IMG/VR virus record: IMGVR_UViG_3300002091_000004
Reading direction: 5' to 3' (one strand)
DNA: 50,744 nucleotides
Source: a virus
The position numbers and the translations under genes were made by a program. Below are positions 1 to 49,499 of the stretch, piece after piece (position 1 is the first letter of the stretch; every line of letters starts with the position of its first letter). The notes beneath the pieces are model-generated. The model had not been told where the DNA came from. It made no database searches and saw nothing but the letters and a program-made list of their open reading frames with translations.

Positions 1-466
1 GATAGACAGTCCAAGGAGCACGGATAGCAAGTTTCTTTACGCCAATCTTACCATCATTATATTTGCTGTTCTTTTTACTGGAACGAGCCTCACCACCACG
101 AACTTTATAGACAGTTTCAAACCATGAAAAACCATAAGTCAAGAAAGACAGGGCTTCTGCAATGTGGTCATCAAGGCTATGGTCCATGTCATCCAGAATG
201 GACTTCATAAAGTCAGCAGCATCTTGGGCAGCAGGAGAGTTATCAATAGGAACAACCTTAATTTCAACATCGCGAAGGGTTTGTTCAACTGCGTACATAA
301 CAGCACCAATAGTGGCATTATTGTCACGCATTTCACGATATTTTTGAATAGCCTTATTGCCACGAAGGTCAACAAGAAATTCATCAGCATAAGGCAAACC
401 TGAATAGGTATTCTGTCCAGAAACCCCAAGTTCAATTTTGCTGGCAGTTTCCGACAGCTTATTCAT
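1..466 (-). CDS. Portal protein, N-terminal fragment (copy of 46603..47068, cut by window start)
   Basis: Same sequence as the 5' part of the 45662..47068 ORF; start codon at 466. Confidence 0.7.
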   Translation of the reverse strand, partial: MNKLSETASKIELGVSGQNTYSGLPYADEFLVDLRGNKAIQKYREMRDNNATIGAVMYAVEQTLRDVEIKVVPIDNSPAAQDAADFMKSILDDMDHSLDDHIAEALSFLTYGFSWFETVYKVRGGEARSSKKNSKYNDGKIGVKKLAIRAPWTVY

Positions 467-474
467 TAGACTAC

Positions 475-1899
475 CTATTGATTTGAAGTTAGACCTTTTG
501 CATCTGAATAGGCCAAATTAAGTGTTGGTTTAGCAATACCTTTAAGGGCAAGGTCAGTCAATGCCCAAACTAGAGCATCAAGACGGTCAGGAGAACCAAT
601 AGAACCCAAAGGTTCCCATTGAACCATTTGATTTTCAAGTTCATCCAATCCCCTAGCATGTTTAACCTTGTGTCTTTCATACAAAGCCGATACTGGTTCA
701 GCACGGGCATACTTACCTTTAGAAGCATGGACCAAGCGAATAGGGATAGTCTCATTAACTGTTTGTAGAGTATGTCTAACCATATCCCCACCTTGATTTC
801 GTTCTGCTACAACACGATCCGCAGTATACTTAAAATAAAGGTCATTGGCTTTAGTAGCCCACTGTTCAGGAGAATATCTGTTTGTGGCATCTTCAAGGAC
901 ATAGCAAACACCATTAAGGTCTATACCTGCCACAACAATGCCAGTCATATCGCTTTCAGCATTAGCTGTAACCGCAGGGTCAATAGCCACAACAACTCTA
1001 GCAAGATTGTTAGCAAACTCTATAGGATCAGGAATATCCATCTCACAGGCTTCAAGAACATCTCTTGTCCACAAAGCACCAGAAGCTTCATCAAGGATTT
1101 CAGCATAAAGTTCTTGACGGCCAAGCCTCGTACCTTCATACAAGTTCTTCACTGTATCAAGATAAGGAGCCGCAAGATTAGCAGAGTTATCAAAAGTTGA
1201 ACCAAAGGTGACAACAGTTGTTTTACCTTTAATAATGTCTCGTACAAGCTTAGTAGGCTTAGGAGTTGTAGTGACACAAACTTGAGGATGCTTGCCAAGA
1301 CGAAGACAAAATTGGAGCATATCCCAAGTGTCTCTATCTCTATTCCAAGCAGCAAGTTCGTCACACCATGCACACTCAAACTGAGGTCCACGAAGACGTT
1401 CAGGTTCTTCAGCAGAGAAGAACTGTACTTGAGCACCATTCTCCCAAGTTAGTGTACGCTTAGTGGGAGACCATACAGGCATACCCATCTTAATACCACG
1501 ATCAGTCTTATCACCAGCCCAACAACGAGCAAGGAAACCAGACTCACCATTAATCATAACTCGTTCAATATCAGAGTTAGTAGCAGCGATAGCAGCAATA
1601 CGTTTTGCACCAGCTTTTACTTTTTCTCTGACCCACTCAACACCAGCACGGGTTTTACCAAAGCCACGACCAGCATTAATAAACCAAGTATTCCAAAGAC
1701 CTTCAGGAGCAAGTTGTGTAGGCCTTGCCCAAAAATGCCAGTTATAGATTAGGGACTTAGCCTTATCGGGATCAAGTTGAGCCAAAAGTTCAGCCACATC
1801 CTCACCCATGCCACGAAGATCATCAGCATGAAGTGCTAGACCATTCTTACCAGTGGGTTCGGGTTTAGGGGCTAACTTTTTGGTGACTCTCTTTACCAT
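475..1899 (-). CDS. terL: Terminase large subunit
   Basis: 474 aa; Walker A-like GRGFGKTR, Walker B-like WCDELAAW; directly upstream of portal gene. Confidence 0.9.
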   Translation of the reverse strand: MVKRVTKKLAPKPEPTGKNGLALHADDLRGMGEDVAELLAQLDPDKAKSLIYNWHFWARPTQLAPEGLWNTWFINAGRGFGKTRAGVEWVREKVKAGAKRIAAIAATNSDIERVMINGESGFLARCWAGDKTDRGIKMGMPVWSPTKRTLTWENGAQVQFFSAEEPERLRGPQFECAWCDELAAWNRDRDTWDMLQFCLRLGKHPQVCVTTTPKPTKLVRDIIKGKTTVVTFGSTFDNSANLAAPYLDTVKNLYEGTRLGRQELYAEILDEASGALWTRDVLEACEMDIPDPIEFANNLARVVVAIDPAVTANAESDMTGIVVAGIDLNGVCYVLEDATNRYSPEQWATKANDLYFKYTADRVVAERNQGGDMVRHTLQTVNETIPIRLVHASKGKYARAEPVSALYERHKVKHARGLDELENQMVQWEPLGSIGSPDRLDALVWALTDLALKGIAKPTLNLAYSDAKGLTSNQ

Positions 1900-2066
1900 T
1901 ATTTCTCAACTGGCTCATATGTGTGACTTTTGTTTCTGATCTTTATTAGAAACTCATCTGGTGGGCTGTAATGAACTAAGTCAAGTTTTCTGATATAGTA
2001 ACCAAACTCTTTTGCAAGGTCTGCAAGTTTTTGAGCCATATCTTCTGGCATTATTGTTGGTTTCAT
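1899..2066 (-). CDS. Hypothetical small protein (55 aa)
   Basis: Below ORF-track cutoff; ATG at 2066, TAA at 1899-1901; TAATG overlaps with both neighbours suggest translational coupling. Confidence 0.45.
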   Translation of the reverse strand: MKPTIMPEDMAQKLADLAKEFGYYIRKLDLVHYSPPDEFLIKIRNKSHTYEPVEK

Positions 2067-2449
2067 TACTCTTCTTTTTCTTTTTTCTTCTTACCTAGCA
2101 AAGCAAGAAGATCGTCAATAGCCCCATTATCAGAGGTTTCATCTTCAGGTTCAGCTTCAATAATGGTTTGAGTTGGCGACCAGCCAGCTTTAGAACGAAG
2201 CACAAGTTCAGCAGCTTTCCAATCACCACTTTTAGCAGCACTGATAACTACATTACCCATTTCTTCTTGTAGGTTAGCCCTAGCATCTGCAATATCAGCA
2301 CGATATGTCTTATACATACCATTCATAGAGGTAGGGGCATCTTTGAATTGTTGAATGTAATCTAGGATTACTCTCATAGCCACACCAGCGCCAATTTGAC
2401 GACGAATAGCTGTAGCAATTTCCATTTTATGTTTAAGTGCTTCAGCCAT
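2066..2449 (-). CDS. Putative terminase small subunit
   Basis: 127 aa from ATG 2449 preceded by AAGGAG; sits just upstream of terL; call by synteny only. Confidence 0.45.
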   Translation of the reverse strand: MAEALKHKMEIATAIRRQIGAGVAMRVILDYIQQFKDAPTSMNGMYKTYRADIADARANLQEEMGNVVISAAKSGDWKAAELVLRSKAGWSPTQTIIEAEPEDETSDNGAIDDLLALLGKKKKEKEE

Positions 2450-2509
2450 TTGTGGCTCCTTTAATGCGCATATAAGCCTTATATGGCTATCTAACTGCCA
2501 CAAAGTAAT

Positions 2510-2585
2510 TGGTGCCCCTGTTCAGAATCGAACTGATTTCCTCGCATTACAAAAGCGAACATCATCCAGTAAATGCTTCAAGGGC
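2510..2585 (-). tRNA. tRNA, anticodon probably UGU (Thr)
   Basis: 76 nt ending CCA; 7-bp acceptor stem GCCCUUG/CAGGGGC, GG in D-loop, T-arm with UUCGAUU loop; hand fold gives loop UU-UGU-AA closed by a U.U mismatch, so isotype is tentative. Confidence 0.6.
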
Positions 2586-2749
2586 CTAGCCTGATAAACA
2601 GGAAATAAGGAACCCTCCAGGGTGCGCCCAACCGATACTCAGTCTATTAATGGCGTGGAGGGTCTATAAACAAAAGGCTCAAACCTAGTTACGCTTCCAT
2701 GATACATGAGATTGTGGGGAAGATTTGTTGTTTTGCCTTTTGTTTATTA

Positions 2750-2778
2750 GATATAATGTTGGTGTTCTGAAAAGTCAA
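2750..2778 (-). promoter_or_regulatory. sigma70-like promoter upstream of tRNA and packaging genes
   Basis: On minus strand TTGACT - 17 nt - TATATC; short version of the repeated cassette. Confidence 0.5.
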
Positions 2779-2897
2779 GGGCAATAGTGATAAAAATATC
2801 ACATATTACGTATTTATTTTTCAAAACACCTAATTTTATCAGTTAAACCACAAAAATATAAAAGTTAACCACAAAAAGTTAACTGATATTTACATGA

Positions 2898-3419
2898 TTA
2901 GCTTCTAAAGTGCAAAGGCATAGTAGTATCCCATCTGTGGATGCTTTTATCCTTTTCCCACTCTCTACGTATAGCTACAGCCTCTTCATAGCTATTTGTT
3001 CTATATACTGCTTGGGTAGGACCCCTTCTAGCTACATAGTAGCCCATAGGCATAATTCTAGCCACACCCTCAACATCAGTCTCAACAGATTTAGGCTTAA
3101 CTACATGTCTGGCAGACAAAGCCTTCTCTGCTTTCTTAACCACAAGAAGATTAGAAAATTCAAAGTTAAGACAATCACCATCTTCAAACTTGATCACTTC
3201 ATCATCTTTAAGGAAGTAGTTCTTGTGAAGGATATATGCTACTCTTGCAGGCTGTAGAGCAATGACTTCATCACCTACCCTAACACCCAAGTACATCTTT
3301 CCACCCTTAGTAGAGTCAAGTAGTCTACCAGACTTCTTACTATAAAACCTACCTTGTTCGTGGTCATACTCAAACTTATTATTGAGTTCCTTGTAGGAGA
3401 ACCCTTTGTATCTTTCCAT
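2898..3419 (-). CDS. HNH_3/AP2-type homing-endonuclease-like DNA-binding protein, catalytic His apparently missing
   Basis: 173 aa; block IKFEDGDCLNFEFSNLLVV resembles the HNH_3 DHxDGNxxNNxxxNL block with F in place of H; C-terminal GYYVARRG..YRTNSYEEAVAIRREW resembles an AP2 domain (by eye). Confidence 0.55.
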   Translation of the reverse strand: MERYKGFSYKELNNKFEYDHEQGRFYSKKSGRLLDSTKGGKMYLGVRVGDEVIALQPARVAYILHKNYFLKDDEVIKFEDGDCLNFEFSNLLVVKKAEKALSARHVVKPKSVETDVEGVARIMPMGYYVARRGPTQAVYRTNSYEEAVAIRREWEKDKSIHRWDTTMPLHFRS

Positions 3420-3615
3420 TGGTACTCTATCCTAGACTGATTACTGATACTCTCTATATACAGATTCTGTACAGTTCTTCAAGTACTATCTTCTAATACT
3501 CTTTATCTCTATAGATAATCATATCCTTGTACGTACAGATATCCTTATACGTACTATCCTTTAAGTAATAGTCTATCTTAGATGGGGATATATTGGGGGG
3601 AACCAACCTTAAAGT

Positions 3616-3644
3616 AATATAGTGTTGGTGTTCTGTAGTGTCAA
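3616..3644 (-). promoter_or_regulatory. sigma70-like promoter upstream of the HNH/AP2 gene
   Basis: On minus strand TTGACA - 17 nt - TATATT, preceded by an A/T tract; core of cassette copy 3583..3670. Confidence 0.5.
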
Positions 3645-4377
3645 GGGGCATTTGTAAAAATATTTGTATATTTATCAAAAATCTTTTTTTTTGTGGAATT
3701 TAGGTCACGAAGGTAAGTCAAATACTTTTTCGTCAAGTCTAGAATGTCACGTTCTTTATGTCAAGGTAAGTATGTCATGTAAGCTTACTATATATAAGGG
3801 GGAGATATGTCACGGCTTGTTCTTTCTTAAAATTTTTCTTATAGATTTCAAGCTGTTACAAAAGTCAGAAATTTTTCTTTTGGATTTATATGGGCTAACC
3901 CACCCCAAACGAATCACCCCCCTATAATCCCAAGGGACCCTAGACTGCTCAGGCTAACGCCCTGCGCCTAGTCAATATCTAATCGTCACTGGTATCGAAA
4001 GAGTTAGACTAGTGTGGCAAATATGTCACTGTAATATAAATGTCACGGCTTCTAACTGTCATGGGATGGTCGGTTGATTTAACTTGACAGTGTGAAATTA
4101 GTAAATCTTTTCCGTAGGATAGCGATTCGGCTAACCCCCCCCCACCTTCAATCAAACTAACACTAGAACACATGCTAGCACTAAAACCCATGCCAGTTTA
4201 CATGCTAACACATTCGAATCCTTGCATATGATCTATCCTGGGTTAGCCTGGCCCGCCATGCTTTGCCACATGCAGAACAAGATAGGCACACAGTCCATAG
4301 GAAGGCCAAGGAAGGGGCAAGCTTGCTTTAGGTACACCTAGATATACCCTAGCAAGCTTGCCTCTCTGGCAGGCCTC

Positions 4378-4479
4378 TTATGAAACCCCTAGCAGGCAAG
4401 CCCCAAAGGACAGGACAACAGCGACAAGCGCCACAAGGGCAAGGGCGTCATATAGCCATGCGCGGATTGTCCCCTTCAT
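4378..4479 (-). CDS. Hypothetical 33-aa membrane peptide
   Basis: MKGTIRAWLYDALALVALVAVVLSFGACLLGVS; start 2 nt after the stop of the upstream 59-aa ORF; below ORF-track cutoff. Confidence 0.3.
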   Translation of the reverse strand: MKGTIRAWLYDALALVALVAVVLSFGACLLGVS

Positions 4480-4480
4480 G

Positions 4481-4660
4481 TCATACCCCCCGATCTGTAT
4501 TGATATTGATCACAAGAACATTGAAGCCGCCAAGTATCAGGTCGGCCTGATAGGCTTGCGCTTGTGCCAGAGTAAACAGTGGCCCAAAGGGCACGATGTT
4601 ATAAGCATTGCATTTTGCGAGACGGTAAGTTTTGAGGCCATAGGCTTTACAGTTTTGCAT
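4481..4660 (-). CDS. Hypothetical 59-aa protein
   Basis: MQNCKAYGLKTYRLAKCNAY...; same strand as the 523-aa ORF upstream; below ORF-track cutoff. Confidence 0.35.
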   Translation of the reverse strand: MQNCKAYGLKTYRLAKCNAYNIVPFGPLFTLAQAQAYQADLILGGFNVLVININTDRGV

Positions 4661-4693
4661 TGGTGTCTTTCCAGATATTTGATTGTTTAGTTA

Positions 4694-4725
4694 ATAAGGC
4701 GAATTGACCGCCTTATCTGTTTTTT
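4694..4725 (+). terminator. Rho-independent terminator, plus-strand orientation
   Basis: Stem ATAAGGCG / CGCCTTAT, loop AATTGAC, followed by CTGTTTTTT on the plus strand only. Confidence 0.55.
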
Positions 4726-4738
4726 CATGTGGCAAGCT

Positions 4739-6310
4739 TTAGGCCGCAATTACAACAGGCAAAAGCCTTTCAATTGCAATGGCCTTATAGTCGCCAACAT
4801 TGCCTGACAAGTAGAATTCGTCGGTGTCTAGTTCAGTATGATGAATCCAATTACCGTCCGGCAATTCTACCATTTCACCGGATTCGTACAGTTCGCCATT
4901 GTCACTTGAAACCATATAATCCTTTCCCGTTCCAATTAGATCATTCGGGATATAATCGCAAAGCTCTTCCGAATAGGTCACGGAATCTTCCTTAAAGAAT
5001 TCGCCTTCAATTTCGGAGTAAAGGAAATTATTTTGTGCGTACTCTTGTGAGTAAGTGCTAGACCCCCGATATTGGCGACCGGACCATGTGGTGCAAATTT
5101 CATATACTGTCACCGAATCCGAATTAAGGACATATTCGCCAAGCCCCTCGCAATACGTCAATTCGCTATCAGTGCAAGACTCGCAATAACAGGAATCGCC
5201 CATGATTTGATATACATCATCCTCAAAAATGTCTTCGTTGCATTCCGCGCAACATCCCACGCATTCCTTTCCATATATATAACCATTCGTGTTCTTGGGG
5301 CGTTCTCCCCTATCGCCAAGCGTCCAGAACTTGCCGCAATCGCTTAGGGTCAAAGACGTTTCAAGGTCCACATAAGGCATAATATAGCCGCCACAATGGC
5401 GCTTGATTGCCAGTAGCTTTGCACCTTGCCAAGCATAATCTGAGACCTCTTTTCCATCATATCCCCTTGAAACAAGATAGGCCAAGATCGTGTCAAAGGC
5501 TTGATCCGAATTGGTGTAAACCGGACCCGGAAAGAAAACCTCTCTTTCGCCTTGCTTGACGTTCACAACAACACGCGCAGCAACTTTGCCATTTTGATCC
5601 GTGGCGTAAATGGATTCAAAATCGCCGCTTGCATATACAGTTGCGGGATGGCCCTCTGTAAACCCAAAATCGTAACGCATACAAGAACCCGATAGAGACT
5701 TAGAATAAAGCCCTTTCTTGTGGCCATAATAAGGATTGAGACACTTTGTCTGTAAGTGTGTATCCACATACGCCGCAGCAAAAGATTCCTTGTCTTTTCC
5801 TGTTACAATATTGAGAACAACCGGGCTAAAAAGTTCTTTCCACTGTTCTGCAAACCAAGTGCAAGACGATTCATCTAGAAAGGGCAGGATCTTTTTGATC
5901 ATTTTTCCCGGCTTGCCTATGGTCTGGACGCCAAGACCATCATCAGTGATCTTTTCAAGTTTTGCCTTGGATTCGTAAATTGCCATAAGGTTGGGGTCTT
6001 TTAGGGCAAGGTTCGGTTGGAAGCAATAATGCAAGACGATTCGATTATAGCGGTAAAAAGCGCACAATTCGCGCAATTCCGCATTGTCGCAATTGTCTTG
6101 GAAACGCCAAAGCAGATTCTCAATAAGAGCGTTTAGCCTATAATTAGAGTCGCGCTTGTAATAAGCCGGGGCCATGATACGCCGAGCTTTATGCGTGTTA
6201 TCAAACAAGGTGGACTCGCGGAAAGAAAAGCCCATTGCTTCAAGCTGGGCACAAAAAATTTCGTCAGGGGTTTTGACAGTTTCGGCGGGTTGGATAGCGT
6301 CTTGAGTCAT
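4739..6310 (-). CDS. Hypothetical 523-aa protein with Cys-rich zinc-ribbon-like C-terminal half; no family recognised
   Basis: Long uninterrupted ORF; ATG 6310 preceded by GAGGAAAC; cluster CVGCCAEC..(14 aa)..CYCESC..C; visibly GC-richer codon usage than the rest of the genome. Confidence 0.6.
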   Translation of the reverse strand: MTQDAIQPAETVKTPDEIFCAQLEAMGFSFRESTLFDNTHKARRIMAPAYYKRDSNYRLNALIENLLWRFQDNCDNAELRELCAFYRYNRIVLHYCFQPNLALKDPNLMAIYESKAKLEKITDDGLGVQTIGKPGKMIKKILPFLDESSCTWFAEQWKELFSPVVLNIVTGKDKESFAAAYVDTHLQTKCLNPYYGHKKGLYSKSLSGSCMRYDFGFTEGHPATVYASGDFESIYATDQNGKVAARVVVNVKQGEREVFFPGPVYTNSDQAFDTILAYLVSRGYDGKEVSDYAWQGAKLLAIKRHCGGYIMPYVDLETSLTLSDCGKFWTLGDRGERPKNTNGYIYGKECVGCCAECNEDIFEDDVYQIMGDSCYCESCTDSELTYCEGLGEYVLNSDSVTVYEICTTWSGRQYRGSSTYSQEYAQNNFLYSEIEGEFFKEDSVTYSEELCDYIPNDLIGTGKDYMVSSDNGELYESGEMVELPDGNWIHHTELDTDEFYLSGNVGDYKAIAIERLLPVVIAA

Positions 6311-6349
6311 TGTGTTTCCTCTTGAGGATTTAAGCGGCAAGGCCGCAAG

Positions 6350-6402
6350 GTTAAGCTACTTTTTAGCTTATCAATTCACTCTTTTTAAGAGTGAACCTTA
6401 AG
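6350..6402 (-). repeat. Two-hairpin leader element, copy 1 (upstream of the 523-aa ORF)
   Basis: TAAGCTA-N5-TAGCTTA then TTCACTC-N7-GAGTGAA; near-identical block at 6621..6671. Confidence 0.6.
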
Positions 6403-6600
6403 CGGAAAAGATTCCACTATTTTTCCGTTAGTCTTGTCTGTTATTACCACGCACCAAAGAGTCTTTTTATCTATTGTGTGTCTGTCCATAAAAACGTCTA
6501 GATGTGTTTTTGCGGCTTCTATAGAAGCAAACAAAACAGGGTAAAAATCCGTTCCATATGGCATGTCATTAATTCTATAGTTAGCTTCTATTTGATACAT
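6385..6600 (-). CDS. Hypothetical protein (71 aa)
   Basis: ORF-track entry; AAGGA 9 nt upstream of ATG; first gene of the minus-strand island. Confidence 0.5.
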   Translation of the reverse strand: MYQIEANYRINDMPYGTDFYPVLFASIEAAKTHLDVFMDRHTIDKKTLWCVVITDKTNGKIVESFPLKVHS

Positions 6601-6620
6601 AGCATTGAGTCCTTGTTTGG

Positions 6621-6671
6621 TTGCTAGTTTTTAGCTTATCAATTCACACTGTTTTTAAGTGTGAACCTTAA
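6621..6671 (-). repeat. Two-hairpin leader element, copy 2 (upstream of the 71-aa ORF)
   Basis: GCTA-N5-TAGC then TTCACAC-N9-GTGTGAA; stem position 6 changed T-A to A-T relative to copy 1 (compensatory). Confidence 0.6.
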
Positions 6672-6880
6672 ACTAAAAAGGCCTAGCCTTACAACAGGCG
6701 CGTCAATTCAATGACATTCGCACTCGACCGAGTCGTTAACCCGATTCCCCCTTTACCTATATGGCAAGGCGGCTTATTTAGCTAGGCTTTAGACGGGTCA
6801 GGTACGGGGCCTTTCCGGCGCGGTTTCCTTTCATCTGAAACAACATTTAAAGCGATTCGTTGGGACTGTAAACCCCCTAT

Positions 6881-7009
6881 CTAGCATGACAGGGCAAGCT
6901 CGATCGGGACCTAGCATGACAGGGCAAGCTCGATCGGGACCTAGCATGACAGGGCAAGCTCGATCGGGACCTAGCATGACAGGGCAAGCTCGATCGGGAC
7001 CTAGCATGA
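6881..7009. repeat. Perfect 30-bp tandem repeat, 4.3 copies
   Basis: CTAGCATGACAGGGCAAGCTCGATCGGGAC x4 plus CTAGCATGA; each unit contains CGATCG (GATC). Confidence 0.95.
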
Positions 7010-7520
7010 AAAGAGAATCGGGCGCAGGCGCGTGATATAAGATTCAAGCAATGTAAAGCGGGAAAGACGTTTATTCTCAATTTTTGTGGCAAGATAGAAC
7101 AAAATTCCAAGATCTTGTTTCCTGACAGTGAATTTCGCCGCCAGGGGGCCGACTCTTGTTTTTATGTATCAGGGCCTAGCTGGAAAATGTGGGCCTCTGG
7201 CGGGCCTCTTTTAGGGGTCTCCGGGCATTGCACAAAAGATAGGCGATTCGCTTGAATTCCTGGGCTGTCAAGCAAAAGATTCCAGGCTAAATTGACGATT
7301 CTTTGACGATTCCGCTTGCAATCAAAGCGATTCGGCCCCATATTCGACTTGTCACCCGGCCAATAGCAGCCGGGCCGGGGTCCAGATTGGATTCGCAAAA
7401 AACACCGAAGTACGGCATATGCGAATCAGTTGCCCAAATGTCACACTAATGAAATCTTAAGATTAATCAAAAGATATCGCTTGCCGTGATATTTTTGCAA
7501 TCCCGACTGATTCGGTCGTG

Positions 7521-7583
7521 ATAAACTATCGTTCGATAATCTATCGTTTGATAATCTATCGTTCGATAATCTATCGTTCGATA
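7521..7583. repeat. AT-rich 15-bp tandem repeat, about 4 copies
   Basis: ATAA(A/T)CTATCGTT(C/T)G x4 followed by ATATTTTTA. Confidence 0.9.
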
Positions 7584-7617
7584 TTTTTAACTGCTGATAG
7601 TTGGGCAAACTTTTGAT

Positions 7618-7721
7618 ACCCCTACGAGGGAATTGTTCATCCTTTGACCCCTACGAGGGAATTGTTCGTCCATACCCCTACAAGGGAATTGTTCGCCCAT
7701 ACCCCTACAAGGGAATTGTTC
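7618..7721. repeat. Four phased 21-bp direct repeats upstream of the first early promoter
   Basis: ACCCCTAC(G/A)AGGGAATTGTTC starting at 7618, 7647, 7674 and 7701 (spacing 29/27/27 bp); last copy ends 13 nt before the -35. Confidence 0.9.
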
Positions 7722-7734
7722 AGGTATAAAACGC

Positions 7735-7763
7735 TTGACTTAATGAAAAATCTGCTGTAAAAA
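7735..7763 (+). promoter_or_regulatory. Candidate sigma70-like early promoter
   Basis: TTGACT - 17 nt - TAAAAA, 20 nt upstream of AAGGAG and ATG 7784. Confidence 0.4.
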
Positions 7764-7783
7764 CCTAACAAAGGAGTACAAAA

Positions 7784-8491
7784 ATGAAAAAAATCTTGGT
7801 TGGAATGGAAACATCTGGAACGATACGTCAAAAATTTAGAGACGCAGGCTTTGATGCATGGTCAATAGACTTGTTACCTTCCTTAGACAACAGCCCTTAT
7901 CATGTTGTGGCAAATGTCTTTGACTTTTTAGACTCTGATAAAACTGTTTGGGACCTAGCTATTTTTCACCCATCTTGCACCTATCTTACATGTTCGGCTG
8001 AATGGGCGTATAAAGAGCCTGACTATCTTAGGTATCCTGACGTTGGATATCATCAAAGGGTAAACAAAGACACTTTAGTAGGAAGTAAAAGGTTTGCTGC
8101 AAGACTAAATGCATTTGATGATTTTGTAGAATGCTTAAATACAAGTAATTCTTATAGGATTGCTGTAGAAAATCCTATTGGAATTGTTTCTTCTTGGTTA
8201 AGAAAGCCTGACCAAATTATTCAACCATATCAGTTTGGAGAAAATGCCTCTAAAGCAACTTGTCTGTGGCTTAATAACCTACCTAAACTTGTCCCAACAA
8301 ATCGGTTTACTGGAAGGTTTGTGATAGATAAAAGTTCTGGTAAGAAAGTGGAACGTTGGTCAAATCAAACTGACTCTGGTCAAAATAAACTTTCTCCTTC
8401 TAAAGATCGTTGGGCGGAACGTAGCAAGACTTATGCTGGTATAGCAAAAGCTATGGTAGATCAATGGGGGCATATAGTAAAAAACTCTTGA
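7784..8491 (+). CDS. DNA (cytosine-5) methyltransferase-like protein
   Basis: 235 aa; GMETSGTIR (motif I-like), HPSCTYL (PC motif-like), AVENP (ENV-like), QPYQFGE..KATCLW, C-terminal RSKTYAGIAKAM. Confidence 0.6.
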   Translation: MKKILVGMETSGTIRQKFRDAGFDAWSIDLLPSLDNSPYHVVANVFDFLDSDKTVWDLAIFHPSCTYLTCSAEWAYKEPDYLRYPDVGYHQRVNKDTLVGSKRFAARLNAFDDFVECLNTSNSYRIAVENPIGIVSSWLRKPDQIIQPYQFGENASKATCLWLNNLPKLVPTNRFTGRFVIDKSSGKKVERWSNQTDSGQNKLSPSKDRWAERSKTYAGIAKAMVDQWGHIVKNS

Positions 8492-8640: not shown

Positions 8641-9723
8641 ATGACCTTCGATATGACCGCTAAACCCTTCAATAAAGCCAAGTACCTTGCTCCTAACCTT
8701 GCTGATATGCTTTCCTATAAGCGTCCTCAAGGTTCTCGCTATCAAAAGAAATTCTGCCGTAGGTTCCTTGAGCCTGTGTTTGGTCAACCTGACCGTCACG
8801 GCAACTATACATTGATTATCAATAATCATAACAATACACTTCCTAATATTGCCTTCATGTCTCACCACGACACTGTTCATAAAGATGATGGGATTCAATC
8901 TCTTTTTTATCAAGGTGATGTTGTAGGTACTACTGGTAAGGATTGCTTGGGAGCAGATTGCACCACTGGCGTCTATATCATGCTCCGTATGATTGAGGCT
9001 AAAGTTCCCGGTGTCTATGTGGTTCACGCTGCTGAAGAGATTGGCTGTGTAGGGTCTAGTAACCTAGTCAAAGACGCACCTTCTTGGATTGACCATGTGA
9101 AGGCTGCTATCAGCTTTGATCGTAAGGGTTTTGATAGCATTATTACACACCAAATGTGTATGCGTACTTGCTCTGATGCTTTCGCTGACAGCTTCTCTGC
9201 TATCCTTGATATGGGCCACAAGAAAGACGATACTGGCTCTTACACGGATAGTAATGAGTATGTGGGGGTTATTGGAGAATGCACTAACCTTTCGGTGGGG
9301 TATCTCAATCAACACACTATCCGTGAAACCCAAGATCTTGCGTTTGTGGAAGACTTGATTGACCACCTGATTAATGCTGATTGGTCCTGCCTTGTCTTTA
9401 AGCGTCAAGCTGGTGATGTGGAATATGATAAAAACTACTACACCTTTGGCAAGAAAGGTTCCTCTAAAAGCACTAACTCTGGTTACGGCTGGCCTTCTCT
9501 TGACTACTATGACGACACCTACTATCAAGAAAAGACAGACTATGCCTACAAGGGAGAGCCTTCTATAAGTGAACTGCAAGACCTTGTTTCAGTAATCAAG
9601 AAGTACCCTGAGCAAATTGCGGATATCTTGGCAAGTTATGGGTACTCTGCTGATGGTCTGATTGATGATTGTGTTGACCTTCGTGACAAGTGGAATCGTA
9701 AGTATAGAAATGTGGGGGCCTAA
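8641..9723 (+). CDS. M28-family zinc peptidase-like protein with unassigned C-terminal domain
   Basis: 360 aa; HHDTVH, GADCTTG, AAEEIGCVGS and SFDRKG match the M28 metal-ligand pattern by eye. Confidence 0.55.
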   Translation: MTFDMTAKPFNKAKYLAPNLADMLSYKRPQGSRYQKKFCRRFLEPVFGQPDRHGNYTLIINNHNNTLPNIAFMSHHDTVHKDDGIQSLFYQGDVVGTTGKDCLGADCTTGVYIMLRMIEAKVPGVYVVHAAEEIGCVGSSNLVKDAPSWIDHVKAAISFDRKGFDSIITHQMCMRTCSDAFADSFSAILDMGHKKDDTGSYTDSNEYVGVIGECTNLSVGYLNQHTIRETQDLAFVEDLIDHLINADWSCLVFKRQAGDVEYDKNYYTFGKKGSSKSTNSGYGWPSLDYYDDTYYQEKTDYAYKGEPSISELQDLVSVIKKYPEQIADILASYGYSADGLIDDCVDLRDKWNRKYRNVGA

Positions 9724-10077
9724 ATGAGGATGGTGTTTGTTTTTGGAAGTAACCTTGATGGTATTCATGGTGCAGGGGCTGCAAAATATGCCCACAAAGA
9801 ACTTGGGGCACAGTGGGGAGTGGGGGAAGGGATGACAGGGGCCACTTACGCTCTCCCCACCAAAGGTCATAAACTCTCTTACATGAGTCTGGAACAGATT
9901 GATCCTTACATTAAAAACTTTCTTGATTATGCAAAAGAGAATCCCTCTTGCACTTTTGCTCTAACACCAATAGGTACGGGTTTAGCTGGTCACAGGAAGA
10001 AAAGTATTTGGGGTATTTTGGAAAAGTATGGTGTTCCTAAAAATGTTTACCTTACCTCTACTTGGGTAACAGAGTAA
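9724..10077 (+). CDS. Conserved phage protein, possible SLOG-type nucleotide-binding fold
   Basis: 117 aa; N-terminal VFVFGSNLDGIHGAGAA glycine-rich loop; assignment tentative. Confidence 0.35.
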   Translation: MRMVFVFGSNLDGIHGAGAAKYAHKELGAQWGVGEGMTGATYALPTKGHKLSYMSLEQIDPYIKNFLDYAKENPSCTFALTPIGTGLAGHRKKSIWGILEKYGVPKNVYLTSTWVTE

Positions 10078-21739: not shown

Positions 21740-21904
21740 ATGGCTGACATGGTTCAAATCTCGGTTAAAGAATATCTTTCCCTTAAAGATGATGCTAATT
21801 GGCGAAGGTGCCTTGAAGCTGGTGGGGTAACATCAGACTGGGAATGGTATAGTGAGGCGCTGGATGCAGGCGGCTATTATGAAGAAGAAGAGGACGAAGA
21901 ATGA
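21740..21904 (+). CDS. Hypothetical acidic protein (54 aa)
   Basis: Below cutoff; ATGA overlap with the nrdJ start. Confidence 0.4.
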   Translation: MADMVQISVKEYLSLKDDANWRRCLEAGGVTSDWEWYSEALDAGGYYEEEEDEE

Positions 21905-22870
21905 CTAATTACTTGCCTACAGACTATCAATCTTTTATTGCCACAAGCCGTTATGCACGATGGCTGGATGATGAAAATCGTCGTGAGAATTGGGGAGAGA
22001 CTGTTCAACGTTATATTGACAATCTTGTGGTACCTAAAGCTGATGCCCAAACCACAGAAGAGATTCGTGAAGCTATTCTTAGCCTTGAAGTAATGCCCTC
22101 TATGCGGGCTATGATGACCGCTGGACCTGCTCTACAACGTGATAATACTGCTGGCTATAACTGTGCTTACCTTGCTGTAGATGACCCTAAAGCCTTTGAT
22201 GAAGCTATGTTCATCCTTCTGTGTGGTACTGGTGTAGGGTTCTCTGTGGAACGTCAGTATATCAGTAAGCTGCCCGATGTACCGGATACTATGTTCCAAA
22301 GCGATGACACTATTATTGTAGCTGACAGTAAAGAGGGTTGGGCTAAGGCATTGCGTAAGCTGATTGCTTATCTGTATGCTGGTGAAATCCCTAAGTGGGA
22401 CGTGTCTAAGGTTCGTCCTGCTGGTGCAAAGCTTAAGACCTTTGGTGGTCGTGCTTCAGGTCCTGCACCTTTGATTGACTTGTTTAACTTTACCATCAAC
22501 ACTTTTGTTAACTCTAAAGGTCGTAAACTCTCTTCTATGGATTGCCACGACCTTATGTGCAAGATTGGTGAAGTTGTTGTGGTTGGTGGTGTTCGTCGTT
22601 CAGCTATGATTAGTCTTTCTAATCTGTCTGATGATCGTATGCGACATGCTAAGTCTGGACAGTGGTGGGAAAAGAATGCTCAACGTGCATTGGCTAACAA
22701 CTCAGTTGCTTATACTGAGCGGCCTGACATGGAAACTTTTCTTCGTGAGTGGACTTCTCTTGTTGAGTCTAAGTCTGGTGAACGAGGTATTTTCAGCCGT
22801 CCTGCGTCTAAAAAGCAAGCTGCAAAGAATGGCCGTCGCAACCCTGACTATGAATTTGGTACCAATCCGT
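21901..22870 (+). CDS. nrdJ: Class II (B12-dependent) ribonucleotide reductase, exon 1
   Basis: Ends ..EFGTNP + T; the unspliced frame hits TAA immediately; joins 23045 to give TNP-C-SEI. Confidence 0.85.
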
Positions 22871-23044
22871 AAGCGATAAATGTGCGGATTTAAAACTTCT
22901 CCTGATTGACTTGGAAGGCTGTAGCAAGCCGACAGGGCGCAAGCGTAATGGTAGCGTGAGAGACTAAGCGGAGAAGGCACTAAGACAGTGTATGCGATAG
23001 TCCAGCGCACAAGTGGGTATGCTAATGTAACCCCACAGTGTGAG
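22871..23044 (+). mobile_element. Group I intron 1 (ORF-less, 174 nt)
   Basis: 5' exon AATCCGU pairs with intron GCGGAUU (22884..22890) with U.G at the splice site; last intron base is G; R/S-like core GAGAGACUAAG (22958) and GCGAUAGUCCAG (22994). Confidence 0.8.
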
Positions 23045-23396
23045 GCAGTGAAATTATTCTAAGACCACAACAATTCTGTAATTTGACGGAATCTGTGATT
23101 AGGGCTACAGACACCCTTGATGACTTGATCCGTAAAGTTCGTATCGCAACTATCCTTGGCACTATTCAATCTACATATACTCACTTCCCTTATCTTCGTA
23201 AGTCTTGGAAAGACAATACTGAAGAAGAGCGGCTGTTGGGAGTTAGCTTGACTGGTATTATGGACAATACTCTAACTAACAATCCTTGGGAAAATCTGAA
23301 TGTTATCCTTGATCTTTTGAAGCAAGTTGCTATTGATACTAACAAAGAGTGGGCAGAAAAGCTTGGTATTAATGCTTCTGTGGCTATCACTTGCGT
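23045..23396 (+). CDS. nrdJ: Class II ribonucleotide reductase, exon 2
   Basis: (C)SEIILRPQQFCNLTE... to ...VAITCV; frame continuity with exons 1 and 3. Confidence 0.85.
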
Positions 23397-24171
23397 TGAC
23401 TAATTAGCGCCCTGTTGTGGTAACATAACAGTGAAAATCCTGTGAATTGCTGGAAACCCCTAACGTAAAGACGAGGGCAATCAGCAGCCAAGCCTTGAAA
23501 AAGGAAGGTTCAACGACTATCTACGAAGGTAGAGTAGGATCAAGTGATCCGAAGCGCAGGGCATCCTTATAGGATGATGATATAGTCTAGTCTCCTAAGA
23601 AACTAGGAGCAGTTTAGGTCTAAAAATGTACATAGTCTATAAAGCAACTTATAAAGATAAGTACTATATTGGTTTTACCAATGACTTGTCTAAAAGAATC
23701 TCTTCACACCAGTGTTCAATCAATTCTGGTAAGAAGAGTAAGTTTTATGATTATGCAAGAAAATACAACTTTGATAATTTTGTATTTTCTATAATTGGTG
23801 AGTTTGAAGATAAAGAATCTGCCTTTAGTTTTGAGATTGAGAACATAAAACTTTCTGACCCAAATTGCCTAAATTTGGCAAAAGGTGGTGAAGGTGGTTT
23901 TGTTATACCCGAATATTTACAAGATGGGTGGAAACAAAAACTAAAGGCTGCTAGACAAGGAAGAAAACCTGCCCAAGGTATGTCACACACAGAAGATAAT
24001 AAAAACCTCTTTAGTTTGTGTGGAAAAATTCGTTGGGATAAGTATGGTAGGTACCCAAGTGAAGTGATTTCTTTATCTTTCAAAGATGCTAAACAAAAGT
24101 ATGGCATAAGTAAAACTCATTACTATAGACTTAAACGGGCTGAGAATAACGAACTCAGTTGAATATAAACG
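23397..24171 (+). mobile_element. Group I intron 2 carrying a GIY-YIG endonuclease ORF (775 nt)
   Basis: 5' exon ends in U, intron ends in G; core GGUUCAACGACUAU (23507) and GAUGAUAUAGUC (23576); splicing restores ITCV-KPSGTVSQL; boundary ambiguous by 1 nt (repeated T). Confidence 0.8.
23626..24162 (+). CDS. GIY-YIG homing endonuclease (intron-encoded)
   Basis: YIVYKAT..YYIGFT..SKRISSH..FEIENI..LNLAKGG; stop lies 9 nt before the 3' splice site. Confidence 0.85.
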   Translation: MYIVYKATYKDKYYIGFTNDLSKRISSHQCSINSGKKSKFYDYARKYNFDNFVFSIIGEFEDKESAFSFEIENIKLSDPNCLNLAKGGEGGFVIPEYLQDGWKQKLKAARQGRKPAQGMSHTEDNKNLFSLCGKIRWDKYGRYPSEVISLSFKDAKQKYGISKTHYYRLKRAENNELS

Positions 24172-24751
24172 TAAACCCTCTGGCACAGTTTCCCAGTTGG
24201 TTGACAGTGCAAGTGGTATTCACGCTAGGCATAGTGAGTACTATATTCGTACTGTGCGTGGAGATAACAAGGACCCATTGACCCAGTTTATGAAGGATCA
24301 AGGTATCCCTAGTGAACCTGATGTTATGAAGCCTGAAAGCACTACTGTCTTTAGCTTTCCTATGAAGTCTCCCTCTGGTGCTATTACTCGTAATGATATG
24401 ACTGCCCTAGAGCAACTTGATCTGTGGTTGATCTATCAACGTCATTGGTGCGAACATAAGCCTTCAGTAACCATTACTGTTCGTGACCATGAATGGATGG
24501 AAGTTGGTGCTTGGGTCTATAAGTACTTTGATGAAGTGTCTGGTGTATCATTTTTGCCACACTCTGACCACTCTTATCAACAAGCACCTTACCAAGAGTG
24601 CTCTAAGCGTGAATACGAAGACGCTCTTGCCTTGATGCCGAAAAAGCTTGACTGGGCAAAGCTTTCAGAGTATGAAACTGAGGATACCTCGAAGGGAACT
24701 AGCACTTTTGCCTGCGTCGGAGGATCGTGTGAGGTTGTAGATTTGGTCTAA
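24172..24751 (+). CDS. nrdJ: Class II ribonucleotide reductase, exon 3
   Basis: Begins (V)KPSGTVSQL and ends with redox tail FACVGGSCEVVDLV; the three exons total 1902 nt = 633 aa. Confidence 0.85.
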
Positions 24752-38615: not shown

Positions 38616-39623
38616 TTAGGCAACTACAGTGCCGATGAAACCACCAAGGTCAGACGAGACAACCTTTTGGTCATAAGCCAGATTGGCTTCCAGCAGTTCT
38701 GCGATACCTTCGACACGCAGGAAGTCACCAACATACGAGCGAATGTCGATACCATAACCGGAGTTATTAGCAACATCATTCCAAGTGAAGGTGTAACCAG
38801 CCGAGGGAACCATCAGGCCAGAGGCCTTCGGGCGGTAGTACAGAGCCGCCGATTTGCCACCAATGAAAGCGTTAGCTTCCGTCAGGCCTTCAGCAGCAGT
38901 GTTCTTGACCGTTTCCATGATCAGGAACTCTTCCACACCGAAAATTTCGGCCAGCTTGGAGTCAGTGATCAAGGCAGTGTTGGTGACGGTAGCGCCGCCA
39001 TTCAGACGGTTCAGGATATCCGGGTGGTTAACCAGAATGTCACGGGTTTGCTTACCAACAACCATGACGTTCGGCTTAAAGCCACCGGACTTCAGTTGCA
39101 CAGCTTGCATCAGCGAAGTAATGTCACGAATCGGAGTCGAGTTCGTGTAGTCGGACCATTGACGCACTTGGTTAGCCGAGGGAGAACCCGAAACACCAGT
39201 CCAGTCATTACCCCAAACCGAAGCAGCGAAATACTTGGAAGCCCACTTAATTTCACGGTCAATCAGGAGTTGATACGTCAGCATCTGCGCACCAGCAGCG
39301 CGGATATTCAGAGCGGTGTCTTCGTTTGCCAGCGTTTCGAAGTCGAAGTTCGTAGCCAGCGAATACACGTCAGCCGAGTACGTATCCAGCGACAGCGACA
39401 TACCAACCACAGGGGCTTTAGTACGCGGAGCGCGGAGTTGGACTTGACCAGCGCGATTAAAGTCAGCGCGGTTATAGATGTAGTATTTGTTAGTCTTGTT
39501 GCTAACAGCCACACGCGGGAACACTTTGTCCGCAATGAAACCAGCCTGATCTTGCAGATAAGCAATCGTGAGGTTGGTAAGCGGTTGATCGACGTGAACT
39601 GAACTCGGAGTCAACATAGCCAT
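38616..39623 (-). CDS. Major capsid protein (lambda gpE-like family)
   Basis: 335 aa; preceded by decoration, scaffold and protease genes. Confidence 0.8.
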   Translation of the reverse strand: MAMLTPSSVHVDQPLTNLTIAYLQDQAGFIADKVFPRVAVSNKTNKYYIYNRADFNRAGQVQLRAPRTKAPVVGMSLSLDTYSADVYSLATNFDFETLANEDTALNIRAAGAQMLTYQLLIDREIKWASKYFAASVWGNDWTGVSGSPSANQVRQWSDYTNSTPIRDITSLMQAVQLKSGGFKPNVMVVGKQTRDILVNHPDILNRLNGGATVTNTALITDSKLAEIFGVEEFLIMETVKNTAAEGLTEANAFIGGKSAALYYRPKASGLMVPSAGYTFTWNDVANNSGYGIDIRSYVGDFLRVEGIAELLEANLAYDQKVVSSDLGGFIGTVVA

Positions 39624-39655
39624 ATTTTATATTCCTTATTTTAAACTAGGTAGTC

Positions 39656-40015
39656 TTAGGCAGCAGTGCCGTCAAGACGGATATCCATCGTAATCACTTG
39701 GCCCGAAACAGCATCTTCCAAAGCAGTGCCAAGGATGATTTGACCAGTCGTAGCAGTGATAGCTTTACCTGTGGCATCCGAAGCGACAGCAGCGCCCTTG
39801 GCGATAGTGCCAGCAGCCACAACCGACACACGGCCATTGTAAGCAGCAGCAACAGCCTTGCCCGAAGCTGCATCAGTAATCGAGACAGCATCAGCACGAA
39901 CACCAGCCGTGCCAACATGAGCAGCCAGACCAGCAGTCATCACGATGAAACGGTATTGGGAGACAGCAGCACCAGTGACATAGCTGCGGGTAGACATATT
40001 TTCGGTAAACGCCAT
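39656..40015 (-). CDS. DUF2190-type capsid decoration/cement protein
   Basis: 119 aa, Ala/Gly/Val-rich beta pattern, immediately upstream of the capsid gene. Confidence 0.6.
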   Translation of the reverse strand: MAFTENMSTRSYVTGAAVSQYRFIVMTAGLAAHVGTAGVRADAVSITDAASGKAVAAAYNGRVSVVAAGTIAKGAAVASDATGKAITATTGQIILGTALEDAVSGQVITMDIRLDGTAA

Positions 40016-47068: not shown

Positions 47069-47076
47069 TAGACTAC

Positions 47077-48501: not shown

Positions 48502-48668
48502 TATTTCTCAACTGGCTCATATGTGTGACTTTTGTTTCTGATCTTTATTAGAAACTCATCTGGTGGGCTGTAATGAACTAAGTCAAGTTTTCTGATATAG
48601 TAACCAAACTCTTTTGCAAGGTCTGCAAGTTTTTGAGCCATATCTTCTGGCATTATTGTTGGTTTCAT
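48501..48668 (-). CDS. Hypothetical small protein (same locus as 1899..2066)
   Basis: Duplicate by +46,602 offset. Confidence 0.45.
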   Translation of the reverse strand: MKPTIMPEDMAQKLADLAKEFGYYIRKLDLVHYSPPDEFLIKIRNKSHTYEPVEK

Positions 48669-49051
48669 TACTCTTCTTTTTCTTTTTTCTTCTTACCTAG
48701 CAAAGCAAGAAGATCGTCAATAGCCCCATTATCAGAGGTTTCATCTTCAGGTTCAGCTTCAATAATGGTTTGAGTTGGCGACCAGCCAGCTTTAGAACGA
48801 AGCACAAGTTCAGCAGCTTTCCAATCACCACTTTTAGCAGCACTGATAACTACATTACCCATTTCTTCTTGTAGGTTAGCCCTAGCATCTGCAATATCAG
48901 CACGATATGTCTTATACATACCATTCATAGAGGTAGGGGCATCTTTGAATTGTTGAATGTAATCTAGGATTACTCTCATAGCCACACCAGCGCCAATTTG
49001 ACGACGAATAGCTGTAGCAATTTCCATTTTATGTTTAAGTGCTTCAGCCAT
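48668..49051 (-). CDS. Putative terminase small subunit (same locus as 2066..2449)
   Basis: Duplicate by +46,602 offset. Confidence 0.45.
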   Translation of the reverse strand: MAEALKHKMEIATAIRRQIGAGVAMRVILDYIQQFKDAPTSMNGMYKTYRADIADARANLQEEMGNVVISAAKSGDWKAAELVLRSKAGWSPTQTIIEAEPEDETSDNGAIDDLLALLGKKKKEKEE

Positions 49052-49111
49052 TTGTGGCTCCTTTAATGCGCATATAAGCCTTATATGGCTATCTAACTGC
49101 CACAAAGTAAT

Positions 49112-49187
49112 TGGTGCCCCTGTTCAGAATCGAACTGATTTCCTCGCATTACAAAAGCGAACATCATCCAGTAAATGCTTCAAGGGC
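49112..49187 (-). tRNA. tRNA, probably Thr(UGU) (same locus as 2510..2585)
   Basis: Duplicate by +46,602 offset. Confidence 0.6.
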
Positions 49188-49351
49188 CTAGCCTGATAAA
49201 CAGGAAATAAGGAACCCTCCAGGGTGCGCCCAACCGATACTCAGTCTATTAATGGCGTGGAGGGTCTATAAACAAAAGGCTCAAACCTAGTTACGCTTCC
49301 ATGATACATGAGATTGTGGGGAAGATTTGTTGTTTTGCCTTTTGTTTATTA

Positions 49352-49380
49352 GATATAATGTTGGTGTTCTGAAAAGTCAA
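49352..49380 (-). promoter_or_regulatory. sigma70-like promoter (same locus as 2750..2778)
   Basis: Duplicate by +46,602 offset. Confidence 0.5.
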
Positions 49381-49499
49381 GGGCAATAGTGATAAAAATA
49401 TCACATATTACGTATTTATTTTTCAAAACACCTAATTTTATCAGTTAAACCACAAAAATATAAAAGTTAACCACAAAAAGTTAACTGATATTTACATGA

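Follow-up and report, generated by a model that had tools for sequence, protein, structure and literature searches.

The viral genome held in IMG/VR as record IMGVR_UViG_3300002091_000004, whose 50,744 nucleotides are here called the window, carries a cluster of four minus-strand open reading frames (ORFs) dominated by the gene for a cysteine-rich protein of 523 amino acids (aa). Our analysis leads us to regard this gene and that of an M28-type di-zinc peptidase-like protein as a two-gene early enzymatic module of phages, a reading to which, taken as a whole, we assign a probability of roughly one half. Its groundwork is far firmer, and we are highly confident both that the 523-aa protein belongs to an extensive family and that it is linked to the peptidase. 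A preliminary description, made from the letters of the window and delimiting the cluster at 4378..6600, did not include the peptidase; the functional unit reaches past those coordinates to the divergently oriented peptidase gene at 8641..9723. The argument for a two-component enzymatic module combines the invariant polar and nucleophilic residues of the 523-aa protein, its strict linkage and frequent translational coupling to the peptidase, and the early position of the pair.

A large and apparently phage-restricted family

The preliminary description had recognised no family for the 523-aa protein and had taken it for an ORFan. What survives of that claim is the lack of models, since the protein has no match in Pfam at E ≤ 0.1, none in NCBIfam or PADLOC, and one weak match in PHROGs (phrog_6980, of unknown function, E = 0.016). 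Relatives, on the other hand, are abundant. A word-indexed search retrieved 68 homologues of about 500-530 aa, among them metagenomic members, with phmmer E-values down to 1e-110, and a second, profile-seeded search of the same database added just five proteins. An exhaustive hidden Markov model (HMM) search covering 1.84 billion representatives yielded 4,767 clusters at 50% identity with E ≤ 1e-3, and 639 with E ≤ 1e-30. No Pfam domain was found fused to the 10 longest members of the family.

Members in cultured phages were placed by tblastn and with the family HMM, which matches proteins of Rhizobium phage Pasto (gp004, 1.7e-62), Bradyrhizobium phage BDU-MI-1 (ARQ95236, 5e-33), Shigella phage Buco (gp9, 5e-27), Klebsiella phage KpV48 (gp08, 2e-19), Vibrio phage VP93 (ORF6, 9e-19), Klebsiella phage fHe-Kpn01 (gp12, 3.5e-17, with an hhalign probability of 97.9%) and Pseudomonas phage C171 (gp19, 6e-14). 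Structure matches in BFVD add Pectobacterium phages Nobby and CB5, Vibrio phage DE17 and Caulobacter phage Lullwater. Cellular genomes were scanned with a single strict peptide pattern, taking one genome per species for 185,579 species of bacteria and archaea, and gave one match, located on a 14-kb contig of a metagenome-assembled genome. On the strength of this sole match the family appears to be confined to phages. A described function for it was not found in the literature, and homology identifies the 523-aa protein as a new addition to a phage family that is catalogued but functionally uncharacterised.

Linkage to an M28-type peptidase

The peptidase gene starts 2.3 kb from the start of the 523-aa gene, across a divergent intergenic region. 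Its product passes the Pfam threshold for PF04389 (24.2 bits against a cut-off of 21.3), matches phrog_4191 at 1.7e-75 and retains H75, D77, D106, E132, E133, D160 and H225 in all 68 aligned homologues, so that the metal site is intact. The ligand roles of these residues were assigned from sequence, by alignment with PepT and by analogy with the Vibrio aminopeptidase. The motifs H-x-D, G-A-D, E-E, D and H are ordered and spaced much as in M28 enzymes and represent the pattern of clan MH, which comprises the M28 aminopeptidases and the M20 enzymes DapE, ArgE and PepT. The protein nevertheless stands apart from both M28 and M20 enzymes, in a phage subfamily of its own in which numerous additional residues are invariant and the C-terminus is extended by about 100 aa, and it differs from M20 also in having no lid domain, with only 65 residues between D160 and H225. 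For the orthologue of phage fHe-Kpn01, HHpred returned DapE with 99.8% probability (PMC7291057 Table S2). Taken together, the invariant M28-style residues, the Pfam score and the DapE assignment make this protein look like an active clan-MH di-zinc hydrolase. As a separate observation, the peptidase family occurs five times in a 735-kb uncultured phage record (GenBank LR756501.1).

Adjacency of the two genes was found in all 73 informative IMG/VR loci. The large gene is present in 80 loci, with the peptidase in tandem in 47, divergent in 18 and, in 8, on the same strand but separated by 400 nt or more; no peptidase was detected in the other seven, whose contigs break off near the gene on the side concerned. 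As in the window, the peptidase of the 18 divergent loci lies about 0.9-2 kb upstream, and in 14 of them a marker of the packaging arm (TerL, a 145-aa gene or the 59-aa gene described below) adjoins. Across loci, the identities of the large protein and of the peptidase to their counterparts in the window are correlated (r = 0.68).

The same association extends to cultured phages. In Pasto, KpV48, BDU-MI-1, fHe-Kpn01, VP93, Buco, C171 and PhiM1 the homologue is directly followed by a gene for a peptidase of about 300-350 aa that is 33-43% identical to the product of 8641..9723 (E 1e-44 to 1e-67), and in KpV48, fHe-Kpn01, Buco, PhiM1 and one of the related metagenomic loci (L017) the pair overlaps or directly adjoins. 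The window pair thus has homologous neighbour pairs in KpV48 gp08/gp09, fHe-Kpn01 gp12/gp13, PhiM1_09/10, VP93 ORF6/ORF7 and Pasto gp004/gp005, distributed over KP34-like (Drulisvirus), PhiM1-like (Phimunavirus) and VP93-like phages and Buco. The large protein of these pairs shares the SCM motif, the P..Y residues and, in most of them, the CxxC…CxxC finger, and is encoded near the start of the replication block; the peptidase in this group of pairs shows 33-37% identity. The window differs from them in that its two genes are divergent and separated by 1.2 kb of repeat-filled DNA and a methyltransferase gene, in that it belongs to a 46.6-kb phage related to Roseobacter phage CRP-6, and in that its large gene heads an arm that continues into the packaging genes.

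The methyltransferase gene is not part of the module in relatives, where the peptidase directly faces the large gene (loci L004 and L006). The 117-aa gene that follows the peptidase (9724..10077, plus strand) was considered as a further member and rejected, as it has no match in any related locus; its product matches the NCBIfam A1S_2505 family phage non-structural protein at 9e-39.

Position and distribution of the module

The junction between the packaging arm and the replication and early arm, where the preliminary description had placed the cluster, is indeed its location. Relatives with a TerL 70-90% identical to that of the window share the order peptidase, intergenic region, large gene, 59-aa gene, a gap of about 0.8-0.9 kb, HNH gene, 145-aa gene and TerL (L004, L006/L007 and many IMG/VR loci), and this common order indicates that the cluster is ancestral in this phage group. 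Against the same relatives, identity is 39-49% for the large protein and 62-70% for the peptidase.

The closest cultured relative by TerL is CRP-6 (65% identity). It has the same overall layout, and neither gene was found in its two terminal stretches (15 kb, equivalent position included) or by tblastn against the whole record. Hence, the module is accessory, and its presence in unrelated phage families implies that it moves between lineages. The description of the cluster as an acquired accessory module is therefore sustained in its second adjective, although the module is not private to this phage.

In other phages the large gene precedes the primase in Slopekvirinae, Corkvirinae and Maculvirus, is upstream of the replication genes in T7-like phages and follows directly after ArdA in the early region of Pasto. 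In the paper on phage CB5, PhiM1_09/10/11 are listed among the conserved early-region ORFs (PMC6115819). The early position in T7-like phages and the location after ArdA in Pasto make a role in host takeover or anti-defence plausible. Such a role had been proposed at the outset for the cluster as an orphan, private and foreign island; the role retains its plausibility, and the island does not. For the phage of the window itself, early timing is suggested by gene position.

Conserved residues and predicted architecture

The sequence features singled out in the preliminary description were all recovered in the 523-aa protein: the cysteine cluster CVGCCAEC…CYCESC…C at residues 350-387, the SCMRYDFGF…GHPATVYASGDF stretch (SCMR…ASGDF) at residues 209-231 and the acidic, Tyr-rich C-terminal region, the last 133 aa of which have an isoelectric point (pI) of 4.05 and include 12 Tyr. 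These features fall into a four-part architecture (Table 1), modelled confidently with AlphaFold2 (AF2): the predicted local distance difference test (pLDDT) score is 83.2 for the whole protein and 89.9 for the core alone, with a predicted template-modelling score (pTM) of 0.84.

Conservation is concentrated in the core. In an alignment of 214 diverse sequences, members of which are otherwise about 28% identical, S209, C210, P222 and Y265 are conserved in 100%, R246, D315 and G343 in 99% and H221 in 95%, and the zinc-finger cysteines in 95-98%. The near-invariant core residues comprise S209, C210, M211, R212, H221, P222, Y226, R246, Y265 and D315. By the same measure, the N- and C-terminal regions are hypervariable.

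The order of elements in the core model is compatible with the topology (beta1-alpha1-alpha2-beta2-beta3-beta4-alpha3-beta5-alpha4-beta6) of the GNAT N-acyltransferases dependent on acyl-CoA or aminoacyl-tRNA, such as Eis, AAC(6'), ElaA and FemX, with helix alpha4 missing, and GNAT-fold enzymes (Eis2, AAC(6'), ElaA, FemX, ESCO1, NatD, GNA1) make up most of the sub-significant matches listed among the best 50 in a Foldseek search of the core against the PDB. The same search with the full model returned nothing under E = 0.17. Unlike canonical GNAT enzymes, the 523-aa protein would carry its invariant Cys in the region matching the alpha1-alpha2 loop.

In a profile search against PDB sequences, LIM fingers alone were matched (CRP1, PDB 1b8t, E = 5.7e-4). 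The conserved cysteines are C354, C357, C376 and C379, plus C387, and the site resembles LIM and zinc-ribbon fingers in its C-x2-C…C-x2-C arrangement, with about 18 residues between the pairs and an aromatic residue thereafter. Six of 37 family members touch the Pfam LIM model weakly; the protein of the window has no Pfam LIM match. A LIM domain consists of two consecutive fingers with eight Cys/His/Asp ligands, whereas a single four-Cys site is conserved here and hairpins poor in Cys are what is left of the second finger. In eukaryotes, LIM domains serve in protein interactions, and we know of no link between them and phages.

Proposed function and alternatives

In most phages the two genes stand in tandem, often with a stop-to-start overlap, in the early region just upstream of the primase/helicase; in the phage group of the window, the pair has been split across the divergent promoter region, each gene heading one arm. 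The 523-aa protein may be a thiol-dependent acyl/peptidyl-transferase or hydrolase, or at least the substrate-selecting subunit, acting with the peptidase soon after infection, and to the advantage of the phage, on a peptide-bearing target of the host. Protein N-termini, cell-wall stem peptides or a peptide metabolite are candidate targets. The enzymatic nature of the 523-aa protein, the role of the Cys as a nucleophile and the physical or functional cooperation with the peptidase are all inferred, and to thiol-based acyl or peptidyl transfer in particular we give a low probability.

Several observations weigh against the enzymatic interpretation, and most of them concern the chemistry. H221 is replaced in the distant cultured-phage homologues of Buco, VP93 and BDU-MI-1, which makes a strict Cys-His dyad doubtful; the SCM motif, unlike the His, is kept even in the most distant cultured homologues. 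The conserved Cys could instead be a metal ligand, and the grouping of the invariant residues is that of a sequence alignment and not of spatial positions. The resemblance to GNAT is weak (Foldseek E 0.05-0.3, TM 0.15-0.33), and its scores do not reach significance; Pfam gives no GNAT match for the protein, and one of 37 family members gave PanZ at E = 0.09. In addition, the acetyl-coenzyme A (CoA) pyrophosphate loop, Q/R-x-x-G-x-G/A, cannot be recognised after the presumed strand beta4 (GPVYTNSDQA), where the family consensus is GPIYxxxDxA, lacking the Gly pair. Two exceptions touch on the linkage: Thermus phage P23-45 gp56, a distant homologue of the peptidase, has no large partner within 4 kb, and the sole metagenome-assembled contig with the large gene shows no peptidase within 5 kb.

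A first alternative is that the pair destroys, trims or modifies, early in infection, a component of host immunity or a peptide or protein signal. This would be a special case of the enzymatic module, with host immunity rather than metabolism as the target. The location directly after the ArdA anti-restriction gene in Pasto is suggestive in this respect, as is the patchy, accessory distribution across unrelated phages and its absence from CRP-6. The large protein also evolves much faster than its neighbours, as the identities given above attest, and its terminal regions vary as an arms race would have them do. Against this, no PADLOC match to any defence-system component was obtained, no link to defence was found in the literature, and the genes are so widespread, and in KP34-like, PhiM1-like and VP93-like phages so consistently found directly ahead of the replication genes, that housekeeping takeover is as likely. 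We consider a dedicated anti-defence function unlikely, though not negligible.

The 523-aa protein might also be a non-catalytic partner, serving as scaffold, adaptor or inhibitor to bring substrates to the peptidase or to regulate it, with the conserved Cys, His and Asp binding a structural metal. The obligate association with a seemingly fully active enzyme is consistent with this idea, and both the zinc finger and the acidic hairpin tail resemble interaction modules; the lack of a recognisable cofactor-binding motif and the variability of His221 in distant members point the same way. The pattern of conservation, however, with S209 and C210 at 100% and R246, Y265 and D315 at about 99%, is more that of an active site than of an interface, and makes this alternative rather improbable.

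A third alternative has both proteins packaged in the virion and injected as ejection proteins that, for example, trim peptidoglycan stem peptides or protect the incoming DNA. To our knowledge, M28 exopeptidases are not wall-breaching enzymes. In every genome examined, moreover, the genes lie among early or replication genes and not in the structural module. The evidence in favour comes from fHe-Kpn01, where gp12, annotated as 'putative structural protein', gp13 (the peptidase) and gp14 were detected in purified particles by liquid chromatography-tandem mass spectrometry (PMC7291057 Table S2). Yet 29 of the 56 proteins of this phage were detected, in particles obtained via ultrafiltration and a glycerol step, and the authors call some of the detected proteins mere carry-over (PMC7291057). 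The gp12 orthologue was left out of the toxicity screen of that study, having been classed as virion-associated (PMC7291057). On balance, we judge a virion-borne function to be very improbable.

Returning to the two-gene enzymatic module, one specific form of it can be envisaged, for which the odds are plainly low. A Cys-dependent, GNAT-like transferase and an aminopeptidase would constitute a phage-specific two-enzyme system that remodels host N-termini or some other peptide-bearing molecule, for instance by trimming followed by acylation or aminoacylation, creating or erasing degradation or immune signals. Such a system would act within minutes of infection and in thousands of phage lineages, including therapeutic Klebsiella phages. 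More generally, this is a very large family without a Pfam, NCBIfam or PADLOC model and yet with a fixed early position in phages that are in use. Its carriers comprise KP34-like Klebsiella, Pectobacterium PhiM1-like and Vibrio VP93-like phages, with clinical or agricultural applications, as well as abundant marine phages. The near-obligate, intact di-zinc peptidase and the invariant Cys-centred motif turn the notion of a two-enzyme host-modifying module into a genetically testable hypothesis, and several tractable model phages carry the gene pair.

Composition and origin of the cluster

The remaining alternative, namely that the cluster is a recently acquired, compositionally foreign island with an orphan protein private to this phage, is largely refuted by the synteny and the size of the family, and we regard it as hardly credible. 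Its premise, that 4200..7450 is clearly richer in GC than the rest of the genome, is right in direction (0.459 against 0.421) and overstated in degree, as this is not the richest region. The excess of 3.8 points corresponds to z = +2.15 relative to windows of equal size, 6.5% of which are as rich or richer, with a maximum of 0.476 in the structural genes.

The accompanying remark on GC-rich codons was accurate. CGC, CCG, GCG and GGC are 2.3 to 4.4 times commoner in the 523-aa gene than in the other 41 genes, and the gene, at a GC content of 0.450, is the most codon-biased of those encoding 450 aa or more (B = 0.335, against 0.21-0.26); its third-position GC content (GC3) of 0.461 is surpassed among the 42 genes by that of the capsid gene alone (mean 0.349, standard deviation 0.072). 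The major capsid gene shows the same enrichment. Capsid-like, high-expression codon usage was tested for the 523-aa gene on this account: five GC-rich codons are common to both, while its overall codon usage is no nearer to the capsid gene than that of other genes (B = 0.618). The major capsid gene and the gene next to it (38616..40015, minus strand) are themselves the most GC-rich and codon-biased of the genome, with GC of 0.52-0.54 and B of 0.62-0.66, and both have in common with the 523-aa gene a codon set rich in CGC, CCG and GGC.

GC content and codon usage do, then, differ somewhat from the rest of the genome, and the searches placed the 523-aa protein in no well-known family of ordinary function. 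Nonetheless, the unexceptional GC shift, the shared codons of the capsid gene and the low GC of the 71-aa ORF mean that composition alone does not indicate a foreign origin; the codon usage is somewhat deviant, and a foreign origin is not required to account for it. Absence of the module from CRP-6 would fit an island or moron, but the 523-aa and 59-aa genes are syntenic in relatives and their composition is only modestly shifted. The 71-aa ORF is alone in behaving as a private, recent insert.

Small open reading frames and non-coding DNA

The coordinates of the four minus-strand ORFs, as first described, hold (Table 1), and public assemblies call the same four genes. Repeat-filled non-coding DNA borders the cluster on both sides, again as described. 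The annotation of the window is to be amended in three respects: the unit spans the divergent promoter, the 523-aa protein is no orphan, and the 71-aa insert is the sole orphan.

Table 1. Features of the cluster, its flanks and the linked peptidase gene in the window.
Feature	Position	Strand	Remarks
Spacer to HNH/packaging genes	3420..4377	-	958 bp; two short 18-bp tandem repeats
15-nt inverted repeat	4313..4365		93% complementary, 23-nt loop; right after 33-aa ORF; no U-run
33-aa hydrophobic peptide ORF	4378..4479	-	Start codon one base past stop codon of 59-aa ORF
59-aa gene	4481..4660	-	Basic product, pI 9.1; directly downstream of 523-aa gene
523-aa gene	4739..6310	-	ATG at 6310; GAGGAAA ribosome-binding site 5 nt upstream
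Acidic beta-hairpin-rich tail	residues 391-523 (4742..5140)	-	AF2 model
CxxC…CxxC zinc finger	residues 346-390 (5141..5275)	-	Sequence conservation
Conserved alpha/beta core	residues 98-345 (5276..6019)	-	About 250 aa
Variable helical N-terminus	residues 1-97 (6020..6310)	-	AF2 model, alignment
About 56-nt element, copy 2	6355..6410	-	Directly upstream of 523-aa gene; palindrome TTCACTCTTAAAAAGAGTGAA, then TTGATAAGCTAAAAA
71-aa ORF	6385..6600	-	GC 0.352; AAGGA ribosome-binding site
Divergent intergenic region	6601..7783		Three tandem arrays and a conserved block
About 56-nt element, copy 1	6623..6680	-	Directly upstream of 71-aa ORF
Tandem array, 30 bp x4.3	6881..7009		Repeat search; 100% identical
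Tandem array, 15 bp x4.3	7520..7583		Repeat search
Tandem array, 27 bp x3.9	7616..7721		Repeat search; conserved in relatives
DNA methyltransferase gene, 235 aa	7784..8491	+	phrog_757, 8.7e-50; between intergenic region and peptidase
M28-type di-zinc peptidase-like gene, 360 aa	8641..9723	+	Divergent, outside the limits first drawn for the cluster

Conservation of the small ORFs is uneven. The 59-aa gene is found at the same position in at least 13 related loci, with 49-73% identity (tblastn), and the 33-aa ORF is weakly conserved, with similarity restricted to its N-terminus in two loci (L018 and L019, E 8e-4 to 0.013). The 71-aa ORF has no homologue but itself among 5.8 billion proteins and none in 98 related loci, and these searches single it out as the sole true ORFan of the cluster. 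It is absent elsewhere, poor in GC and flanked by a duplicated element of about 56 nt. Probably it was inserted recently, with the leftward promoter region on one side and the 523-aa gene on the other. The two copies of the element, which are 85% identical, are the only ones in the window (0 expected by chance), and the element is absent upstream of the homologous gene in relatives; it looks as if the regulatory leader of the 523-aa gene had been duplicated in the course of the insertion.

The cluster appears to form a transcription unit of its own; the spacer that separates it from the packaging genes contains promoter-like sites, and the inverted repeat downstream of the 33-aa ORF may mark the end of the unit. 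Matches to sigma-70-like promoters occur in the spacer, for instance at 3644..3616 (11 of 12 positions), and a gap of similar size, about 0.8-0.9 kb, is found at the same place in relatives. The spacer also contains, on the minus strand between 3744 and 4047, three copies of CGTGACAT within 300 bp, out of eight in the window, wrap included, where 0.7 would be expected. GTGACAT recurs at 7438..7444, in the conserved block of the divergent region, and all copies lie on the leftward strand. CGTGACAT may thus be a promoter or regulator motif. The spacer further harbours a 61-aa ORF (3493..3678, minus strand) with 44-54% protein similarity at the same position in loci L006, L007, L018 and L019 (E 1e-6 to 1e-9), which may represent a small conserved gene or merely conserved DNA.

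On the other side of the cluster, conservation of non-coding DNA is pronounced. The block at 7370..7446 is 80-91% identical in five or more relatives in which the proteins encoded on either side have diverged much further, and it includes TGCAACTGATTCG…TTTTTTGCGAAT as well as a GC-rich hairpin in which some of the changes are compensatory. Considered together, this block and the 27-bp array show 75-91% identity in relatives whose large protein is 39-49% identical to that of the window. The tandem arrays could be iterons or regulator-binding sites.

Genome layout and additional observations

Positions 1..4142 of the window are an exact copy of 46603..50744 (4,142 bp), leaving a unit genome of 46,602 bp. 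A genuine terminal repeat was ruled out as the source of this duplication, since an independent ENA assembly of the same phage, a contig of 46,627 bp, passes unbroken through the junction; the duplication is a circular wrap and not a biological repeat. A further contig with the same protein measures 72,693 bp and is possibly a concatemer assembly. A megablast search with 4000..8000 found no match among 50,697 phage records.

As laid out by PHROG scans, the rightward arm extends from 7784 to about 27500 and encodes the methyltransferase, the peptidase, a cell-wall hydrolase, a primase-helicase, DNA polymerase A, thymidylate synthase, an exonuclease, ribonucleotide reductase and PhoH. The leftward arm contains the tail, capsid, portal and TerL genes, followed by the HNH gene, and terminates at the 523-aa gene cluster. 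No single-subunit RNA polymerase was found among the ORFs of the window that were scanned.

Four minor features complete the description. A tRNA-Thr gene (anticodon TGT) lies at 2510..2585 on the minus strand, between the HNH gene and the 145-aa gene upstream of TerL. A group I intron (Rfam RF00028, 114.6 bits) occupies 23387..23609 on the plus strand, between the ribonucleotide-reductase ORFs at 21901..22872 and 24197..24751, and is followed by a GC-poor (0.33) ORF of 178 aa at 23626..24162 that could encode a homing endonuclease. Finally, a 69-bp tandem repeat with three copies, the first 2.2 of which are 100% identical, lies at 43197..43405 inside an 899-aa gene (phrog_2295, of unknown function).

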